Shown one piece after another: positions 2,259 to 36,164 of a stretch of DNA of 48,134 bases. Under the pieces are notes generated by a model. That model was given only the letters and a program-made list of their open reading frames with translations. It made no database searches and had not been told where the DNA came from. The translations under genes and the position numbers were made by a program. Every line of letters begins with the position of its first letter. Position 1 is the first letter of the stretch. The stretch is from a virus (lineage: Duplodnaviria > Heunggongvirae > Uroviricota > Caudoviricetes), in IMG/VR virus record IMGVR_UViG_2651869782_000034, one strand, 5' to 3'.

Positions 2259-2704
2259 TGGTTGCCTCCTTTGCGAAGCTCAGCGGCGAAGGCTACTGCG
2301 TGATCATGATGTTCAAGTGTGTATGCACACTCCGCAAACATCTCCACGCCCTGCGCACGAATTTCAGCCAGGAAAGCATCGGTGGCTGGGGTTTCAGTAA
2401 CATCATCTTCCCATTCGCTAAACTCCTCACGACAAAAGTCATTAAATTCCTTCTCAGATTGCTTAAGCGAGGTATTTTCAGCAGCCATCTTCGCGCACTT
2501 GGCCTCAAGGTTATCAATCGTGATTCCAGCAGAACTACACTCCCGCAACGCCGTTTCTAGTTTTGATTCAAGTTCACCGAACTTACGCACAAGATATTCA
2601 GCGTTTGTTTCGTTAACCTTTAAATCACATGGGATGCATTTACCTTTCAGAAATCCATCCATCTCAATTAGTGTCATTTGTTTCATTTTTTCCCACTCCG
2701 CCAC
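2255..2704 (-). CDS. Ead/Ea22-like protein
   Basis: 149-aa acidic coiled-coil ORF in position and composition typical of Ea22 family; GTG start. Confidence 0.5.
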
Positions 2705-2865
2705 ATCGCATTCAGATATTTGTTTTGATTCACTGATGGAAAAGAATTTCTCTTAAGCAATCCCTCTCTCGATGGCATTGGCTTTACGCGTTGGCGAATA
2801 ATCATTTCTGCCGGAAGAATGCCGGGATTGTATGCAAGTCCTCTCATGGTAAATTCCTCAGTCAT
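2683..2865 (-). CDS. Hypothetical small protein
   Basis: ATG at 2865 overlaps upstream stop (ATGACTGA), translational coupling. Confidence 0.4.
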
Positions 2866-3154
2866 TACTGATAGCGCCATAGCGTGAGCGGTAATTACGC
2901 AGGCGCGGGTCGATATATTCAGGGAAGTGGGTATATGTGGCTTTGCGGAATGGTCGGATTGATGTCTGGTAAATTCGCTCGCGTTCTTCTTTCTCTGCAA
3001 GCCATATACAGTGGCGAAATTCCTTTTCCTCTTTCGTTTCCTGCGGTAGCGACATTATCCGATCGTAGTTTTTTCTGAATTTATCCAGCACCTCCGATAC
3101 GGAATTGCCGGAACAGCGGCGCGGGTCATCCACACCATACAGAGGCACTGGCAT
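2858..3154 (-). CDS. Hypothetical protein
   Basis: 98-aa ORF, AAGGA RBS 7 nt upstream of ATG 3154. Confidence 0.5.
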
Positions 3155-3177
3155 GATTAAATCCTTATGTTGCTAAT

Positions 3178-3561
3178 TTAGAAGGGAATTGAATCGTCGT
3201 GTTCAGGATGATTTTGATGATTGCTACTTTGTTGCTGTTGGCTGTTTCCTGAAGTTGCAAATCCAATCTTTGCATTCAGTAATTCAAGAGTGATTGATTG
3301 ACCATTTTGCCCCTGATAAACATCAACCCTGATGTTTTCTCCGGTAATTTCAGCAATGCCACCTTCAACAAGAACACTACGGTAGTAATCCGCTTGCGCT
3401 CCCGGCTTGGCAAATACAACGGCGCTGTAGTTTGTCCATTCTTTCTTTTTTGTCTGGCGATCGTAATACTGAACGCCAGCACGGATGTTGAATCCGATAT
3501 TTTCCCCGGCCTGAAACTCTCTTGCGGGCTTGTTTAGTCTTACAGTAATCGAATGTGCCAT
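3178..3561 (-). CDS. Single-stranded DNA-binding protein (phage SSB-like)
   Basis: OB-fold-like core, Q-rich linker and acidic C-terminal tail ending DDSIPF as in SSB; ATG overlaps erf stop (TAATG). Confidence 0.65.
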   Translation of the reverse strand: MAHSITVRLNKPAREFQAGENIGFNIRAGVQYYDRQTKKKEWTNYSAVVFAKPGAQADYYRSVLVEGGIAEITGENIRVDVYQGQNGQSITLELLNAKIGFATSGNSQQQQSSNHQNHPEHDDSIPF

Positions 3562-28784: not shown

Positions 28785-30134
28785 ATGGCTACGTGGCAAC
28801 AGGGTATTAATTCTGGTGGTTTTCTGGCTGGCATCGGTACGCAAAATGAGAATGCGCCAAAGGCAAGCGACATTAACGCAGCGCTTGGTCTGATCCGCGA
28901 AAACAATGAATTGGCTCGCTCAGGTGCAAATAACGTTGGTCTGACCGCGTTACGTGGTCTGGCTGGAGTTGCTGATATTTATAAGCAGGAACAGCAACAG
29001 AAAGCGATTAGTGCGTTCAATAAGGTTCACGCTGATGCATGGGCTTCTGGTGATCCATCGGGACTATTTAAGTTTGCCCAGGAAAATCCAGCGTTTGTTG
29101 CACAGGCACAACAGGCGTTTTCCGGTCTTAATGAGCAGCAACGCAACGATATGGGCGATTTAGCCATGAGGGCTAACGTCGCTCTTTCTCAGGGACCGGA
29201 AGCCTACAGTAAATTCATTACTGACAACAAGGACAGGTTAAATCGCGTTGGTGCTAATGCTGACTGGATGATTCAGACAGGTATCCAGAATCCAGAGCAG
29301 CTATCACACATGCTGACTACGATGTCTCTCGGTGCGCTTGGGCCAGAAAAGGCGTTTGCTGTTCAGGACAAGATGGTTGGTCGCCAGCAGGAGCAGCAAA
29401 GAATTAACGAAACCATTCGCAATAATGACATGACGAATGCGAGGGCTATTAGGGGGCAGGATCTTTCCTATAAGGCTCAAATGGCAAGACTGAATCACGA
29501 CAAGTATGTGTTTAAGCAGTCACAGGCGGCCCTTGAAAGAGCAGGGCAACTTCAGGATATGGATGTTTTGTCTCTTAACTCACAGATAGCAGCGACGGGA
29601 ATTGATCCTCTAACCGGTAAAGCTGCAACGTCAGCCAGAATGTCTCAGGCTAAGAGATGGCTTGATGGCAACAATAATTACAACAATGCGTTGATTACTG
29701 GTGAGCGAGGGATAGAGAAAATAGATTCTTTGCTTGGTAAGAAGGAGCTTGAAGGTATCGGTCGCTTCGAAGGAAGAAATATAGATGGCTTCACAAGTGC
29801 TGAAGGGCTTGCAAACCGTAATGCGATAGAAGAATTAAAGTCGGGTGCGTTTGTCCAGAACGTGCAGACTATGCGAGGTATGGGTAGCCTCTCCAATGCT
29901 GAAGGCCAAAAACTGGAAAACCTGATCGCGAAACTCGATATAACACAGCCTGAAGAGGTCGTCAGAAAACAGTTATCTGAAATCCGATCGCAATATTCTG
30001 TATTTCAAAAGGTTGCAGCAAGGGAGGCTGAATCAATGGGATATAGTTCATCAGGTTATGACACATATGTTAGTGAGCGAAAATCAGGAAGCGACAGCAA
30101 TAAGTCCGGTTTCTCGTCTTTATGGGGTGATTAA
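28785..30134 (+). CDS. Ejection protein gp20-like
   Basis: 449 aa; gene order. Confidence 0.65.
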
Positions 30135-32302
30135 TGGCTAAAGCATGGAAAGATGTTATCGCTTCTCCACAGTATCAGGCGTTAACTGAAGAACAGAAAG
30201 CACAGGCTCAAGCGCAATATTTTGATGAGGTTGTTGCCCCTAAGGCTGGTGACAAATGGGCTGAAGCAAGAGATCAGTTTTATGCAGCATACCCTCCACC
30301 TCAGCAGCAGAAAGAAGAACCATCATTGATGCAACAAGCTGGTGATTGGCTCACAGGTGGTCAAAGTGCAGGGCAAATTGCAGAACAGGCTGGTCGTGGT
30401 CTGGTAAACATACCATTTGACGTATTACAGGGTGGCGCAAGTCTGATTAATGCAATCAGTCAGGGGCTTGGTGGGCCAAAAGTATTGGATGATGTCTATC
30501 GTCCAGTCGATCGACCGACAGACCATTACGCGCAAGCCGGTGAAACAATTGGCGGGTATCTCCTGCCAATTGGTACAGCGGCAAAAGCTGCTGGAGCGCC
30601 AGCAAAGCTCGCTGGAGATATCGGTTCCGCAGGAAACATGATTGCAGGTTCTCTTGCTGATGCTGCAAATCAGGAGGGCGACTTTGCACAAAATGCTGCC
30701 ATTAACGGTGGTATAAATATTGGTGCTCAGGGGATACTTTCTGGGGCTGGAAGGATCTTAACCTCTAAATCACCTCAAGTTCTTGGTGGCGGGGCAATAA
30801 ATTCCGCTGCTGATGTTTCGAAAATGGCAAAGTCTGGTACAGGAAGAGAGATTATTGCCAGACAGTCAGCTAATGTGTCAGACGAAATAGCAAAAGCAGC
30901 AGATACTGCTGGAATAGATATCAACGCATTAACTCCTGGCATGAGATCAGGTAGTCGTGGTCTTGCTCAGGCGGAGGGGATTCTGGCGTCAAAGCCCGGA
31001 ATTACACAGGATGCACACACCAAAGCATTCAGTGAAATAGAGTCGAAATTTAACTCAGCATTGGATGAGTTTGGGGCTGAAGCAGGAACTGCATCAGAAA
31101 AAAGTGCAGCCATAAAACAAAGGGTTTTGGCAAGTATTGATAAAATGAAAAATTCAGAAAAGGCCGCATGGGATAGCGTCCGCTCCACGATGCCTGACGC
31201 AAAGGCCAGAATGTCAAACCTGAACGCTACAATTCAGGGTGATATTTTGGCCGGCATGCCGCTAACTCCTGAGATGAAACAATTCGCATCTGCTTATGCT
31301 AAAACTAGTAAAAAAGGAATCACGTTTGATGCCATGAAGGCATGGCGAAGTAAACTTGCTGACGCAGAGCAGAAGTATATAAGGTCTGGTGAGGCAAATA
31401 CGGCAAGGCGCATGGCTGAGCTTCGTGATGCAGCAACGGAAGATATGCGCATAATGGCTCAAAATGGCGGTTTTCTTGATGACTGGCAAAAAGCTAATGA
31501 TCTGTCAAAAGCAAGATTTACAGCACAAGAACAGGCTGAAGCAGCGTTTGGTAGAGACCTTGCAACTGATCAGTTGGTAACTAATGGCTCTAAGGCGTTG
31601 CAGGGTTCAGCAAAAAGTGGAACAGGTCAGTTCCATAAAATAATAAGCGCCCTACCTGAGTCGGAACGCGCGCCAGCAATTGCATCAATATTACAAGATG
31701 CGGTATCGCAAGGGGTACGCGGAGGTAAGTCTGAAGAGGCTGGAATTAAGCATATCGCGACTATTCTTACCCCACAAAACGTGAAGGCAATTAGTCGATA
31801 TTCTCCAGAGCTTGGTAGGATTGCCAGGGGGTTTGGAGAACTTGCAAGAGCAGCAACAAAGCCACTTCGATATGTTGAACAAACAGGGCGCTCTATGCCA
31901 GCCATTAGCACTCTTGAGAATGGCCTTCATCCAGTTTTAGAGAGCGTATTGTCTGGCGCTTTTCCAACCGCTGGCGCTATCGCAGGGTTCTCTGGAGGAG
32001 GTGTTATTGGAGCAATAGTGGGTGGCGCTGCAGGTGGAGCAATTGATGCAATAGCAAAAGGATCGATAGCGAAATTATCCGCAACCAGAAGTGGTCGTTA
32101 CGCTATTGAAAAGGCTGTTCAAGAGGCGACAAAGGCAGTTAAAGTTGGGGCAAGTGATGGCGCATTAGCGGCGGCGGAACGCAGATTTATGGCAAATAAG
32201 GCCGCCGTAAAAGCAATTCGCGATGCACTAGGAAACGAAGAGTTCCAGCGTTTGTCGAGGGCTGGGATTGTGGCATCGCTAAGCGGAATGGCACAGGATT
32301 GA
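30134..32302 (+). CDS. Ejection protein gp16-like
   Basis: 722 aa; start overlaps upstream stop; gene order. Confidence 0.65.
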
Positions 32303-32319
32303 GGTGACGCCATGGATGG

Positions 32320-32769
32320 CTATTTTTTAAGGTAATAATCATCAAAATCGCAAGAAGCGGATATCACAGAACTTGAATCCATAGAAAAAGACAGGGTTTC
32401 GCATGCCTTTCCGGCCTGATGATATGCATGGATATCACCGGATACATATCCTCCTGTAGAAAACAACGATTTTTCACCGTTTTTTTCTACAAGAATGTGC
32501 TTATCTGAATCATTAATAAACCAAATGGAAATAGAGTGACTTTCGCCAAGGTCTGTTCTATTGAACACCTTAGGTTGGGTACCCTTGACAGCATTTTCGG
32601 CTCGCATAATCAGTTCAGCGCTTTTTTTGCTATTTTTTTGTTCTGTATAGATTTTGTCTGCCACAAAATAAACAATGGCAATGGCTAACAAAGATAGGGA
32701 AATCAGCAATGCCTTTTTAATCAATTTTTTGGCATCCCTGTAAATCTCAACTGATAATTTTTCACTCAC
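32320..32769 (-). CDS. Single-pass membrane protein (moron; sieA-position superinfection-exclusion candidate)
   Basis: GTG start 5 nt after AAGGAGG; TM helix LLISLSLLAIAIVYFV then about 110-aa extracytoplasmic domain; opposite strand to late operon. Confidence 0.55.
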   Translation of the reverse strand: MSEKLSVEIYRDAKKLIKKALLISLSLLAIAIVYFVADKIYTEQKNSKKSAELIMRAENAVKGTQPKVFNRTDLGESHSISIWFINDSDKHILVEKNGEKSLFSTGGYVSGDIHAYHQAGKACETLSFSMDSSSVISASCDFDDYYLKK

Positions 32770-32832
32770 ACCAACCTCCTTAGTTTTGTGCAGGATACCA
32801 GATGATAATGTGTAGTTGGAGTAGCGCGGTTG

Positions 32833-32928
32833 TAATGCAAGCATTTTGTTTTGGTTTTATGCTTGCTTGTATGTGTGTACAGTGCATATAATGCAAGCAT
32901 ACATCACAATAAAGGTGCTTGCATTATG
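32833..32928. promoter_or_regulatory. Four copies of near-palindromic motif ATGCAAGCAT / ATGCTTGCAT in a divergent promoter region
   Basis: taATGCAAGCATt (32833-44), ATGCTTGC (32859-66), taATGCAAGCATa (32889-900), GCTTGCATta (32916-26) overlapping ATG 32926. Confidence 0.55.
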
Positions 32929-33918
32929 ACTGAAAAGAAAAGTGGCGAAGGGAAAGCTAAGGGCGGTATCGCTCGCGCAAAGTCGCTGACTAAAGAGCAG
33001 CGTTCTGAAATAGCAAAGAAAGCAGCGGCTGCAAGATGGAAGGATAAACCATTAATTGCTACGCATAAGGGATCGTTCCAGCATGAATTCGGGATTGATG
33101 TTGAGTGCTATGTGTTAAATGATGATAACAAAACTGCCGTTATTAGCCAGAGAGGCATGGGAGAAGCGATTGGTCTTGGCGAAGGTGGCAGCAGGTTGCC
33201 AAAGTTTATTCAGGGGAAAACTATTTCTCAGTATATCGGGCATGAATTAAGGGCAAAACTTGAAAATCCTCTTATTTTTCAATACAAACAGGCGGGCACG
33301 AACACTCCAGCTAATCCTGTAATACATGGCTACGATGTAACAATATTAATTGATTTATGTCGAGCAATCTCTAATGCTAAAGCTGAAGGTAAGTTGCTTT
33401 CCAGTCAGGAAGGGATTGCTAAGCAAGCCAGAATCATTATTGATGCATCAGCCAAGGCGGGCATTCAGGGGCTTGTTTATGCTTTGGCAGGGTATGACAG
33501 AACAAAAGAAGAGGTAATTCAAGCATATAAGCGATATGTTGCTGAAGAGGCTCGTGAGTATGAAAGAGAGTTCACCCCTGAACTTTATGAGCATTGGTAT
33601 CGTCTGTATGGTATAGACAAACCAGTTAGAGGGCGACCATGGGCGTTTAAATATCTTACGATAGATCACATTTATTACCCATTAGCCAGAAGTGAAGGAA
33701 AGGTATTTAATTTAGCAAAAACGTCAAAAGAAGAAAAAGGCAGCAAAAACGATAAAATACACCAGTTTTTATCAGAGGTTGGAGTTAAGGCTCTTAGAAC
33801 CCAAATAGGTAAGGTTACTGGTATTGCAATGGTTTCTGATACTCGAGAAGAGTATGAGAAATACATAGATGAAAAGGTTATTGGACAAAGAACCATAGAC
33901 TTAAAAGATAAAGAATAA
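32926..33918 (+). CDS. Hypothetical 330-aa protein with basic N-terminal segment (possible DNA-binding)
   Basis: MTEKKSGEGKAKGGIARAKSLTKEQRSEIAKKAAAARW; start codon lies inside an operator-like repeat. Confidence 0.55.
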   Translation: MTEKKSGEGKAKGGIARAKSLTKEQRSEIAKKAAAARWKDKPLIATHKGSFQHEFGIDVECYVLNDDNKTAVISQRGMGEAIGLGEGGSRLPKFIQGKTISQYIGHELRAKLENPLIFQYKQAGTNTPANPVIHGYDVTILIDLCRAISNAKAEGKLLSSQEGIAKQARIIIDASAKAGIQGLVYALAGYDRTKEEVIQAYKRYVAEEAREYEREFTPELYEHWYRLYGIDKPVRGRPWAFKYLTIDHIYYPLARSEGKVFNLAKTSKEEKGSKNDKIHQFLSEVGVKALRTQIGKVTGIAMVSDTREEYEKYIDEKVIGQRTIDLKDKE

Positions 33919-33924
33919 GAAAAT

Positions 33925-33946
33925 CCCACCGTCAGGTGGGTTTTTT
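33925..33946. terminator. Bidirectional rho-independent terminator
   Basis: CCCACC-gtca-GGTGGG followed by TTTTTT, preceded by AAAA on the other strand. Confidence 0.65.
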
Positions 33947-33971: not shown

Positions 33972-34508
33972 TCAAACAACCCACCAGTTTGCCTGATTGG
34001 ATGCCAGCCTTGCAGTTTTTATGGAATTAATTATGCCATGCTCAAGAGCCTTGTTAGCATCCAAAATGGTCGAGTCTGCTATCAGGGATGCCCACCTAAT
34101 ATGGGTTCCGATGTCGATATTGAACGTCTCAACGAAGCGATCAAGATCGTTATCGAGGCATTTCCCGTACTCTCTCAATCTGGCATGGTCGGCGGCTGGG
34201 GAGGCAAAGCACCATAATAGAGGATGTAACAGGAATCTTGATAATGGGTTTGCGAAACGTTCTGAGCCAGCCAGGAAAACGATATTAGCTATGGATTCAA
34301 CATTGCTTATGTTGTGAGTTCTAACGGTAACAGGGAGTGACTTAAGAAAGTTATACGCAGTAAAGCCAGCGGCAGTTTCCCCTCCCTGACTTGATATATG
34401 GATATTTAATTCAGTTGCGCCTTGAGATAATGCGGTGAGACAGTGGTTCTGAAGTTGCCCAACAGTGGCAGTGTTAACGGGGCATAAGAAATGAATTGTG
34501 TGCAGCAT
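33972..34508 (-). CDS. Clp-fold serine protease (ClpP-like, short form)
   Basis: HISSQGG vs ClpP INSPGG; ES-IANIVFLAG aligns to the ClpP active-site Ser; LLHPL aligns to MIHQP His; ATG overlaps mnt stop (TAATG). Confidence 0.7.
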   Translation of the reverse strand: MLHTIHFLCPVNTATVGQLQNHCLTALSQGATELNIHISSQGGETAAGFTAYNFLKSLPVTVRTHNISNVESIANIVFLAGSERFANPLSRFLLHPLLWCFASPAADHARLREYGKCLDNDLDRFVETFNIDIGTHIRWASLIADSTILDANKALEHGIINSIKTARLASNQANWWVV

Positions 34509-34756
34509 TATTTTTCATCCTTAGCATACATGGTCTTTAGCGTCTCAAGCAGCGCCTCTTTGAATTTGTCAGCTTCTTGCTGAGCAAATGACTCAACTGA
34601 CTTTGGCGACCTATCTTCATCAATCGCGGCTTGCAAAATCATGACGATCTCGGAGTTAACAGAGCGACCATTTTTTGATGCTCTGACAGCAAGAGCCTCG
34701 CGTAAAGATTCAGGGATTCTTACCGTAGTTGGAGAAATTGACACACCCTTTGCCAT
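34508..34756 (-). CDS. mnt: Mnt-like ribbon-helix-helix repressor
   Basis: RIPESLREALAVRASKNGRSVNSEIVMILQAAI and C-terminal coiled coil parallel P22 Mnt; divergent from arc. Confidence 0.8.
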   Translation of the reverse strand: MAKGVSISPTTVRIPESLREALAVRASKNGRSVNSEIVMILQAAIDEDRSPKSVESFAQQEADKFKEALLETLKTMYAKDEK

Positions 34757-34834: not shown

Positions 34835-34870
34835 TTGTATTCGAAAAGAGTTGTTTGTGTGGAGGGTAAC

Positions 34871-35023
34871 ATGGAGAAAGAAATAAGTAAGATTTTGGTA
34901 AGGATGCCGCAGTCGTTAAAGGATGCTATAGGTAGCAGGGCAAAGGAAGAGTGCAGGTCGTTTAACTCAGAGGTTATCAAGCGCCTGATAGACAGCTTGA
35001 AGAGAGAGGGGGTAATGGTATGA
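34871..35023 (+). CDS. arc: Arc-like ribbon-helix-helix repressor
   Basis: MEKEISKILVRMPQSLKDAIGSRAKEECRSFNSEVIKRLIDSLKREG parallels P22 Arc. Confidence 0.75.
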   Translation: MEKEISKILVRMPQSLKDAIGSRAKEECRSFNSEVIKRLIDSLKREGVMV

Positions 35024-35223
35024 GTAAAGAATGTTGTTTCTGCGGCATTAGCGAATCAGACGCTGATCAAACATACATTTACTCTAAAGAAACAGGTCGG
35101 ATGCTGTGTAGTGACTGCGTGTTGGACATCATAAGATACAAGCATCTTGGATGTTCTGCCAGCATTAGCAATATAGGTGAAGTATATGAAGGGAAAGATA
35201 TAACTGATAGAGCAGAAAGTTGA
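35020..35223 (+). CDS. Small zinc-ribbon-like protein between arc and ant
   Basis: Two Cys pairs (CCFCG ... CSDC); ATG overlaps arc stop. Confidence 0.45.
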   Translation: MSKECCFCGISESDADQTYIYSKETGRMLCSDCVLDIIRYKHLGCSASISNIGEVYEGKDITDRAES

Positions 35224-35285
35224 AGCCCCAACTGCGGTAACAGTCAGGGCTTCGGTATCAACAAATCGTCTTAGGAAATATTGAC

Positions 35286-36164
35286 ATGAAAAGTATAGCA
35301 AAGGCACAAAACGATTTCACCATCTTCAAATTCGGCGACAGTGAAATCCGCGTCATCAACAAGTGCGGTGAGCCGTGGTTTGTAGCTAAAGATGTTTGTG
35401 ATGCTTTAGCTTTGACTAACTCACGCAAGGCGCTTACTGCACTTGATGACGATGAAAAGGGAGTAACTTTAAGTTACACCCTTGGTGGTGAGCAGAATCT
35501 AAGCATTGTGAGCGAATCAGGTATGTATACATTGGTTCTGCGCTGCCGCGATGCAGTCAATAAAGGTTCAGTCCCGCACAAATTCCGCAAGTGGGTAACA
35601 GCAGAAGTTCTGCCTTCAATTCGCAAACATGGCGAGTATGTTAAAGGAAAGAAAACCACTGTTGAGGAAAGAACACCGCTACGCGATGCAGTAAACATGC
35701 TGGTAGGAAAGAAAGGACTTCGCTATGACGATGCATACAATATGGTTCATCAGCGTTTTGGTATTGACAGCATTGATGAACTTTCAATTGAACAAATCCC
35801 GCAAGCTGTAGAGTACATCCACAGGGTAGTGCTTGAAGGTGAGTTCATCGGCAAACAAGAGAAGAAAACCAACGAGCTTTCTGCAAAAGAAGCAAACAGC
35901 CTTGTATGGTTATGGGATTATGCCAACCGCTCACAGGCATTATTCCGCGAACTGTATCCGGCGCTAAAACAAATTCAATCGAACTATTCCGGCAGATGTC
36001 ATGACTGCGGTTATGAGTTCTCCCGTATTATCGATATGGCGAGAGATGTTTTAATCAACCATACACGAGATGTTGATATTAATGAGCCAGACGGACCAAC
36101 GAATCTTTCCGCATGGATGAGACTTAAGAATAAAGAATTACCTCCTTCAGTACATAACTACTGA
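35286..36164 (+). CDS. ant: Antirepressor Ant (Bro-N domain)
   Basis: Bro-N motif [30 protein letters not shown]; follows arc as in P22 immI. Confidence 0.85.

Follow-up and report, generated by a model that had tools for sequence, protein, structure and literature searches.

An autoregulated accessory gene on mobile DNA is a familiar kind of thing. In the Tn3 family the genes are arranged as tnpA-res-tnpR, and TnpR, by binding to the res sites between the two divergent genes, represses the pair. InsA of IS1 is a repressor of the transposase promoter; it is a zinc-finger/helix-turn-helix (HTH) protein, is encoded in the same orientation as the transposase, and binds the terminal repeats. The C proteins of restriction-modification systems and the phage repressors with multipartite operators use several palindromic sites over their own promoter for autoregulation on mobile DNA. 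The Pfam domain P63C, to which no function has been assigned, counts thousands of members among phages, prophages and bacterial chromosomes. Here we analyze a P63C-family gene in the IMG/VR virus record IMGVR_UViG_2651869782_000034, a DNA of 48,134 nucleotides that is called the window below and represents a P22-like (Lederbergvirus-type) Escherichia coli prophage. The gene is preceded by an array of four 10-bp repeats. A first-pass annotation, made from the letters alone, took the gene and its divergent neighbor, a membrane-protein gene, for a two-gene moron that shares these repeats as operators. We find it probable that the region instead holds a solo, autoregulated P63C cassette (nt 32801–33946), which is independent of the membrane-gene cargo to its left (nt 32320–32800).

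Results

Repeat array and predicted promoter of the P63C gene

The divergent membrane-protein and P63C genes are separated by an intergenic region of 156 bp (nt 32770–32925). As the first-pass annotation had noted, the region contains four near-palindromic 10-bp repeats in alternating orientation, which are numbered O1 to O4 here. O1 (32835–32844) and O3 (32891–32900) are on the (+) strand and read exactly ATGCAAGCAT, with O3 lying over the −10/+1 region. O2 (32859–32868) and O4 (32915–32924) are on the (−) strand and read ATGCTTGCTT and GTGCTTGCAT, each with one mismatch. The 3′ part of O2, TTGCTT (32863–32868), is a candidate −35 element. A candidate −10 element read from the sequence, TATAAT (32887–32892, (+) strand), has as its last two bases the first two of O3. 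O4 comes just after the Shine-Dalgarno (SD) sequence AAAGG (32911–32915) and abuts the ATG.

The array consists of two inverted-repeat units 56 bp apart, with arms 24 bp apart start to start, and the second unit is a perfect 12-nt inverted repeat (32888–32899 and 32916–32927). The earlier statement that the last copy overlaps the ATG holds for this 12-nt arm, which takes in the A and the T, and not for the 10-mer, which ends at 32924, one base before the ATG. With one mismatch allowed, ATGCAAGCAT is matched 8 times in the window versus about 7 times per 48 kb in shuffled sequences; four of the eight matches sit within 90 bp, and therefore the cluster is not due to chance. The 8-mer core TGCAAGCA has one isolated copy elsewhere in the window (6542), which is within chance, and no other cluster of the motif was found there. 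A bidirectional intrinsic terminator (33925–33946), CCCACCGTCAGGTGGG followed by a T-run, closes the monocistronic P63C cassette.

The arrays upstream of homologous genes share this geometry. The distances are 22–25 bp for O1–O2, 31–32 bp for O2–O3 (86 of 94 arrays) and 22–25 bp for O3–O4. O2 supplies TTGCAT or TTGCTT as the −35, followed after 17–18 bp by a tA.aAT hexamer that stands before or overlaps O3, and the A2 and T6 of this −10 hexamer are present in 65 of 72 cassettes. The start codon lies 8 nt into O4 in 49 of the 94 arrays and 0–8 nt into it in most; the final bases of O4 make up the ATG in the majority of homologues. From these signals, transcription in the window is predicted to start near nt 32899 and to yield a 27-nt leader that carries the SD, with O4 over the initiation region. 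The repeated sites are thus located over the gene's own −35, −10 and start and are conserved with the gene, which is the pattern of an autoregulated unit.

The P63C protein

The P63C-family gene (32926–33918, (+) strand) runs from the ATG at 32926 to a stop codon ending at 33918 and encodes 330 residues. The first-pass annotation had this reading frame and its Lys/Ala-rich N-terminus right; the N-terminal segment ends AAAARW. The same annotation could place neither protein of the divergent pair in a family. Profile searches now put the 330-residue protein in PF10546 (P63C) and phrog_2384 and leave the membrane protein without a family. The PF10546 match covers residues 202–289 with 35.9 bits against a gathering cutoff of 26.1 (E=1.2e-8), and the phrog_2384 match is full length (residues 6–328 against profile positions 4–331 of 338, E=4.5e-103). 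Both families are annotated without a function. All 33 aligned homologues match PF10546, and the RefSeq name of the protein is "P63C domain-containing protein". Homologues fall into 2766 clusters, and the window protein is found unchanged in 51 member sequences. Enterobacterial, Burkholderia, Ralstonia, Azotobacter and Laribacter copies are 60–70% identical.

Other databases added little. The protein has no match in NCBIfam or PADLOC, and a PDB sequence search with the P63C profile returned spurious designed Kelch repeats and no sequence relative. PADLOC-DB v2.0 gave no match for either protein of the pair or for six distant P63C homologues, save for the XRE HTH of one homologue. Literature searches on P63C function and on the motif found nothing relevant.

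The AlphaFold model of the protein shows N-terminal helices, a well-predicted alpha/beta domain (residues about 43–190) and a helical C-terminal half. Three parts can be delimited on the (+) strand. The N-terminal module of 26 residues, GGIARAKSLTKEQRSEIAKKAAAARW (nt 32962–33039), is the presumed operator-binding element. The central alpha/beta domain (residues 39–201, nt 33040–33528) may have a weakly Bro-N-like or winged-helix-like fold. The P63C Pfam domain (residues 202–289, nt 33529–33792) is all-helical, with many invariant charged and aromatic residues. In a structure search of BFVD, Bro-N proteins dominate the viral matches, and p63 of Myxococcus phage Mx8 is among the best. Profiles of Bro-N (PF02498) and KilA-N gave no match to E=10 with the central region and none to E=1 with the 33 family members. 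A role as a TnpR-like recombinase was considered and dropped; the candidate Arg/His/Tyr positions are not conserved in distant homologues.

P63C homologues have very diverse neighbors. One adjoins cI in a lambdoid prophage of Azotobacter, and one is part of a Ralstonia island; others are close to tail genes of P2-like and Mu-like type or to a portal gene of P22 type. In cultured temperate phages, solo cassettes stand directly after cI (ST104) or next to the integrase gene (Gordonia phages, Burkholderia DC1, Javan satellites), and that of the window is in the sieA slot; accessory genes expressed in the lysogen are typically located at such positions. From these positions, we would guess that the payload (the central plus the P63C domain, about 290 residues) is a lysogen-expressed function against other mobile DNA. 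In E. coli GPEC1405 (NZ_CM142774.1, 4775086–4777777) the P63C gene is found in two pieces around an IS5-family transposase gene and is apparently disrupted.

The motif travels with P63C genes

Upstream regions of five distant homologues (Azotobacter, Ralstonia, Enterobacter, Serratia and Morganella; 220 bp each, aligned by eye) have four sites in the same + − + − order, and the rest of the DNA is unrelated and very different in G+C content. A wider genomic sample, with one genome per species, comprised 80 loci with homologues 51–68% identical to the window protein. These loci span at least 8 phyla, the groups represented being Alpha-, Beta-, Gamma- and Deltaproteobacteria, Acidobacteriota, Firmicutes, Verrucomicrobiota, Abditibacteriota, Myxococcota and Chloroflexota. 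The motif (at most one mismatch) occurs 218 times in 15.8 kb of upstream windows versus 34 times in the remaining 596.5 kb, an enrichment of about 240-fold. All four sites are present in 39 of the 80 loci, at about −85, −62, −31 and −8.

The reverse search points the same way. The exact arrangement ATGCAAGCAT-N10-20-ATGCTTGCAT was found in 42 viral contigs of IMG/VR, and a P63C homologue is directly adjacent in 36 of them, including proteins with just 24–34% identity to the query. At L105:3924–3956 (L numbers denote our loci), the operator pair is separated by 1.3 kb from a P63C core without the N-terminal module.

Loci without the canonical motif carry variants. In a group from Acidobacteria, TATACTTGCyCGGGCA and yCGGGCAAGTATA surround a TTGAC −35; ATGCGTGCAT or GTCAAGCAT is found in other lineages, and one lineage has ATGCTTGC-N3-GCAAGCAT triplets. 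The sites are ordered − − + + or form adjacent palindromes in some lineages. The motif has TGCAAGCA as its invariant core, with variation at positions 1 and 10 of the 10-mer. In phage ST104 (L135, AB102868; nt 2417–3496), the annotated start of orf23, the gene immediately after cI, falls inside O3. The true start probably lies 36 nt further on, immediately behind the fourth site.

By these comparisons of sequence, the repeats appear to belong to the P63C gene alone, as an inbuilt promoter and operator set that is carried with the family. The first-pass annotation had proposed that the 330-residue protein is its own regulator. This is very probably correct, because the array travels with P63C genes across phyla whatever their neighbors. 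The idea is further backed by an array that embeds the −35 and −10 of the gene and co-occurs with one N-terminal module.

An IS1-family transposon carrying P63C

At many genomic loci a second long ORF diverges from the other side of the array. It encodes a DDE transposase of 275–295 residues with an N-terminal HTH. It matches IS1-family profiles best, namely Pfam DDE_Tnp_IS1 (25.5 bits, slightly over the gathering score of 24.1) and NCBIfam transpos_IS1 (62 bits, below the equivalog cutoff). This IS1-like transposase gene is divergent to P63C in 45 of the 80 genomic loci and in 1 of the 42 viral contigs.

The elements have terminal inverted repeats (IRs), GGTAGTGnnTCAnTTTGAA, and a perfect 8-bp target duplication flanks 21 of the 22 elements with both ends. 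The same IS1-family terminal repeat, GGTAGTG..., has been reported for ISDge2 (PMC7674623). Complete elements are 2.3–4.7 kb long and occur in Proteobacteria, Acidobacteriota, Firmicutes, Verrucomicrobiota and other phyla. Their order is IR, transposase (leftward), O1–O4, P63C (rightward), a small module-bearing protein (leftward) and IR. Examples of complete three-gene elements are found among L014–L088, such as L034:2990–5276 from Oxalobacter and L082:1452–3916 from Pseudolysobacter. Judged by these features, the IS1-family transposon carrying P63C is apparently active. The possibility that the operators are the transposon ends was rejected, as the motif is missing from the distal side of the transposase gene and bears no relation to the actual inverted repeats.

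Abutting O2 on the leftward strand is a mirror −10, in which A2 and T6 are found in 23 of 27 transposase-bearing arrays versus 14 of 45 solos. In complete elements the array is, as the sequences suggest, used symmetrically by two promoters. The mirror −10 of the window reads ATACAA, a decayed leftward promoter. The window has no transposase gene by tblastn, no match to the inverted repeats at up to 2 substitutions, and no small gene. Its four sites, their spacing and the module are the same as those of the transposon-borne copies, with a protein identity of 51–68%. In phages such solo cassettes predominate, with 41 of 42 viral contigs. The element in the window would be classed as a transposase-less solo P63C cassette that has its origin in an IS1-family transposon or else is shared with one.

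The N-terminal module

The module can be written as GGxARAxxLxxxxRxxIAxxAAxxRW (26 residues), within a wider segment (R/K)AKGGxARAxxLxxxxRxxIAxxAAxxRW. It is the most conserved segment in those homologues of 24–34% identity that keep exact operators. AlphaFold predicts two helices in this region, residues 11–20 and 23–39. In a census of 121 loci, every canonical array accompanies the module; three apparent exceptions are regex misses. Proteins that lack the module also lack the motif. There are three such cases, none of them with the motif. In the Pseudomonas homologue of L073 (56% identical overall) the N-terminus is a different one, the homologue of Streptococcus satellite Javan441 has nothing ahead of the central domain, and in a gut phage protein the module has given way to an XRE HTH (PF01381). 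The exchange for a classical HTH in the last protein suggests that this part of the protein is a slot for DNA-binding elements.

Either the module itself or a modified form is present in ST104 orf23, Gordonia phage Barco gp34, Burkholderia DC1 gp5 and a protein of Pseudomonas phage Lodos, and the accompanying sites are canonical, variant or partial. An altered module goes with altered sites in the Acidobacteria group and in the DC1/L072 group. The N-terminal module is therefore the prime candidate for the operator reader, on the strength of a correlation within co-inherited cassettes.

In the window the module occurs in the P63C protein only, and no second copy was found. The small gene of complete transposons encodes 72–91 residues, of which the C-terminal half is the GGxARA...RW module. 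It lies just inside the right transposon end, convergent with P63C, and is present in 26 transposase-bearing loci versus 0 of 75 solos. Small proteins of this family (70–90 residues, 2573 clusters) follow the pattern RPRDxNQLAKxIVDxATGE...GGxKGGKARAxKLTxExRxEIAKKAAxxRW, an example being L034:4980–5201 on the (−) strand. The family has no Pfam entry, and its members are automatically named "histone H1" or "general stress protein YciG".

The membrane-protein gene and the sieA slot

The membrane-protein gene (32320–32769, (−) strand) encodes 149 residues. It starts with the GTG at 32769, and AAGGAGG (32781–32775) is located five bases upstream. The protein has one hydrophobic segment (about residues 15–41) and would be a single-pass membrane protein; coordinates and features agree with the first-pass annotation. 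It matches no family in Pfam, PHROG, NCBIfam or PADLOC. Its homologues form just 3 clusters, all enterobacterial (E. coli or Salmonella), versus the 2766 of P63C. Identity of the protein with P22 SieA was rejected, because BLASTP gave no alignment at E≤100.

The start of the gene is nevertheless of the P22 sieA type. A stretch of 34 bp (32767–32800, (−) strand) comprising the GTG, AAGGAGG and the 5′ untranslated region (5′UTR) is 100% identical to P22 records and is all that P22 shares with the membrane-gene/P63C region. The joint was compared among P22, phage vB_EcoP-611R6 and L092 sequences. At least three cargo genes, unrelated to one another, use the joint: P22 sieA, the 149-residue gene, and a 110-residue gene in 611R6 and E. 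coli MS 21-1, whose product has an N-terminal hydrophobic segment followed by a coiled coil. Judged from this comparison, the joint marks the left boundary of the inserted P63C cassette.

Both 611R6 and MS 21-1 have the same intergenic DNA and a P63C gene, but a different, unrelated leftward gene. The 611R6 P63C protein is 54% identical to the window copy as a whole, with the first 39 codons identical and with the same architecture and regulatory DNA. Conversely, homologues of the membrane protein (64–85% identical) occupy the sieA slot in other P22-like prophages that have no P63C gene, and one of these P63C-less loci has exactly the upstream sequence of P22. A σ70 promoter for the membrane gene inside the array seems improbable, the mirror −10 being dead. 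The sole promoter candidate for this gene is a weak TCCAAC-N17-TATCCT outside the operators and partly within the P22-shared joint.

The claim that the two genes form a functional module with shared operators is not supported by these observations. The leftward partner differs in 611R6 and MS 21-1, membrane-protein homologues occur without P63C, and P63C occurs in many contexts without a conserved partner of this kind. The leftward mirror promoter is decayed in the window and serves the transposase gene in complete elements. The membrane gene is probably not driven by the operator array; it would be expressed from the conserved sieA-type 5′UTR and SD. By sequence it is best regarded as swappable orphan cargo in the sieA slot (32320–32800) and as no part of the P63C cassette. 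Because the P63C cassette and the membrane gene each occur without the other, the sieA slot looks like a cargo position with a fixed expression joint. More generally, the gene 16–immI interval of P22-like phages would be a cargo slot, where unrelated membrane genes and whole cassettes are swapped into a 34-bp joint. The sieA position has the look of a cassette-exchange slot with a fixed expression signal.

Surrounding genes

The region lies between the gene 16 homologue (30134–32302), which is the left neighbor of the membrane gene, and an immI region with Mnt/Arc, sar and Ant. This is the position of P22 sieA, as had been noted in the first annotation. On the right, a ClpP-like gene (33972–34508, (−) strand) encodes 178 residues that match PF00574 (E=2e-11) and head-maturation-protease-like PHROGs. 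A Mnt/Arc-family gene of the P22-type immI region (34508–34756, (−) strand) follows, then the Arc gene (34835–35023), a 67-residue Cys-rich ORF between arc and ant (35020–35223, (+) strand, phrog_7150), the sar antisense RNA (35218–35284, (−) strand, Rfam RF00262, 74.5 bits), the Ant gene (35286–36164) and the tailspike gene (from 36265). In an Rfam scan of the neighborhood sar was the sole real match; the other hits are spurious sub-threshold matches to miRNA precursors (24–30 bits versus cutoffs of 101–119).

The ClpP-like gene, which is downstream of the immI maintenance repressor gene on the same strand, stops exactly at the point where that Mnt/Arc-family gene begins, so that the two genes look co-transcribed. 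The ClpP-like and Arc pair is present in roughly 300 complete E. coli genomes.

Discussion

A proposed self-limiting P63C cassette

We propose that the cassette is a σ70 promoter built into four 10-bp operators (core TGCAAGCA), followed by the P63C gene and its terminator. The P63C protein would bind the four sites through its N-terminal 26-residue basic two-helix module. Protein on O2 (−35) and O3 (−10/+1) would occlude RNA polymerase. O4 sits over the ribosome-binding site and start codon and O1 flanks the promoter upstream, and these two sites may add cooperativity or act as a roadblock. When the sites are occupied, transcription of P63C itself would be shut off, and the protein would be held at a low steady level in the lysogen. 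Negative autoregulation of P63C is well supported by the sequence patterns described above, from which we infer the binding itself, the repression, the residues that would read the DNA, and a function of the payload. No other candidate for the binder was found in the window, in which there is no transposase, inverted repeat, second module copy or other motif cluster.

Several observations weigh against this proposal. The complete transposons encode two other possible binders of the sites, the transposase with its HTH and the small protein. The co-occurrence of module and motif is confounded by the shared ancestry of the cassettes, and just 3 clean module-less cases are available. The module matches no curated DNA-binding family, and its model confidence is modest (pLDDT about 44–71). 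The strict promoter scan did not call the P63C promoter; the candidate −35, TTGCTT, is weak, and it was missed because it matches only 3 of the 6 positions of TTGACA. Among the 42 exact viral motif pairs, 6 are not beside a P63C gene. At L120:8155–8187, an exact operator pair with an SD in its spacer overlaps the ATG of an ORF (MRNRQGQVKATFYFDDG...) that is unrelated to P63C, and the retrieved stretch of L120 showed no gene for a protein with the N-terminal module. The role suggested for the payload is a guess from gene position, and no PADLOC match speaks for it. Finally, read-through transcripts, for example from the late operon, would form a hairpin of −16.4 kcal/mol that hides the SD and AUG. 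An RNA-level contribution to control may therefore exist if transcripts enter from upstream.

Alternative explanations

This hairpin suggests that the repeats might act mainly as RNA or single-stranded DNA structures, with an O3/O4 stem hiding the SD and AUG, with O1/O2 as a terminator or insulator, and with no repressor. Transcripts that include O3 would fold into a 14-bp stem (z = −4.8) that has the SD in its loop and the AUG at its base; the spacer between the arms varies from 12 to 19 nt, as loops do, and the region is downstream of a rightward late operon. Yet the pairing shows no compensatory covariation. For O3/O4, 26 of 78 deviating positions still pair, compared with 25.2 ± 1.5 with shuffled partners, and for O1/O2 13 of 54, compared with 11.5. 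On this ground the sites look like DNA operators and not hairpins. The sequence of each arm is conserved beyond complementarity, and one sequence is common to all four sites though two separate hairpins would form. The same-orientation or abutting sites of some lineages cannot make the O3/O4 stem, and the fixed O2–O3 distance of 31–32 bp is a constraint of a promoter or protein, not of RNA. Moreover, the −10 overlaps O3, so the gene's own transcript should begin within O3 or downstream of it, and an RNA that begins at the predicted start is unstructured (z = +1.1). We regard the hairpin explanation as quite improbable. It is also unlikely that the operators are read by some other protein, be it the small module protein, a host-encoded IS1-like transposase or a host factor, with P63C just as cargo. 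One of the two further DNA-binding candidates of complete elements has the same module, small proteins with the module are very common, and the operator pair in L120 precedes an unrelated ORF. The window, however, encodes neither the transposase nor the small protein, the 75 solo cassettes keep the sites without either gene nearby, and homologues without the N-terminal module are also without the sites. It is implausible that a single host factor would be shared by Proteobacteria, Acidobacteriota, Firmicutes, Verrucomicrobiota and Actinobacteria phages.

The two-gene moron, an exclusion or defence pair whose divergent genes are jointly controlled by the shared operators, has in its favor the adjacent, divergent genes with the array between them and the location in the sieA slot. 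The same array controls a divergent pair in complete transposons and so can serve two promoters. We consider this reading very unlikely, given that in 611R6 and MS 21-1 the leftward gene beside the same cassette is a different one, and that membrane-protein homologues occur without P63C and are confined to 3 clusters. The leftward −10 has become ATACAA, with A2/T6 kept in 14 of the 45 solos, and the membrane gene retains the P22 sieA 5′UTR and has its sole promoter-like element outside the operators. The same decay of the leftward promoter, together with the missing transposase, small gene and inverted repeats and the IS5 interruption in one E. coli genome, could mean that what is left of an IS1-family transposon here is inert and decaying, with no current function in the prophage. 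That is the hardest of these explanations to credit and seems extremely improbable. The ORF is intact, and promoter, SD, four sites and terminator are all preserved; the identical protein recurs in 51 member sequences, the 54%-identical version in 611R6 keeps the architecture and regulatory DNA, and solos are the rule in phages, at lysogeny-expressed positions.

Implications

A broader interpretation extends the autoregulated cassette to its relatives, and we offer it tentatively, as a possibility that we would not put on a level with the cassette itself. The module may be an autonomous sequence-specific DNA-binding mini-domain that reads TGCAAGCA. The complete elements may represent a new three-gene type of IS1-family transposon, in which a four-site operator regulates the transposase. 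Phages may have repeatedly captured the P63C half as a self-limiting lysogen effector against competing mobile DNA, acting in exclusion, in defence or as a trans-repressor of transposons.

For P63C, the analysis provides four testable handles. One is a cognate DNA motif with a four-site operator/promoter architecture conserved across phyla. Another is a candidate DNA-reading module that is unannotated in databases and common to tiny proteins mislabelled "histone H1" or "YciG". The apparently active IS1-family transposon as a home would explain the more than 50% identity of P63C across phyla. The natural variants, in which the module is lost, replaced by an HTH, or altered along with altered sites, are suited to work on binding specificity. 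If it is true that the payload acts on incoming phages or transposons, it would constitute a new class of lysogen-encoded protection.

Comparison with known systems

Among annotated families, the window protein matches both PF10546 and PHROG 2384 and resembles Mx8 p63 in structure. The N-terminal module, the operator array and the transposon link are absent from the P63C annotations and the literature searched, and relative to these the operator, the putative DNA-binding module and the transposon association appear new.

The membrane gene resembles P22 sieA in following gene 16 and in having the identical 34-bp joint of SD, 5′UTR and GTG. However, SieA has several transmembrane segments and the window protein one, and the sequences are dissimilar.

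Like the Bro-N/KilA-N and antirepressor regulators (Bro, Ant, Rha, KilA), P63C combines a central alpha/beta domain with a helical C-terminal domain and is found in phage accessory and immunity regions. The cassette is also similar to the C protein genes and the phage repressor genes in having several sites over its own promoter on mobile DNA. It differs in that P63C has no HTH, the spacing is fixed at 23–24, 31–32 and 23–24 bp, one site lies over the start codon, and no downstream regulated gene is evident in the window.

The complete P63C elements are comparable to IS1 with InsA, both being of the IS1 family with a putative dedicated small regulator of transposase expression. In the P63C elements, however, the sites are internal and unrelated to the GGTAGTG... 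repeats, and the module is different. The complete elements also resemble the Tn3 family, in which transposase and accessory-protein genes likewise diverge from a multi-site array over both promoters. Unlike in Tn3, the transposase is IS1-like and P63C has no serine- or tyrosine-recombinase signature, and of this arrangement the window retains the accessory half only.

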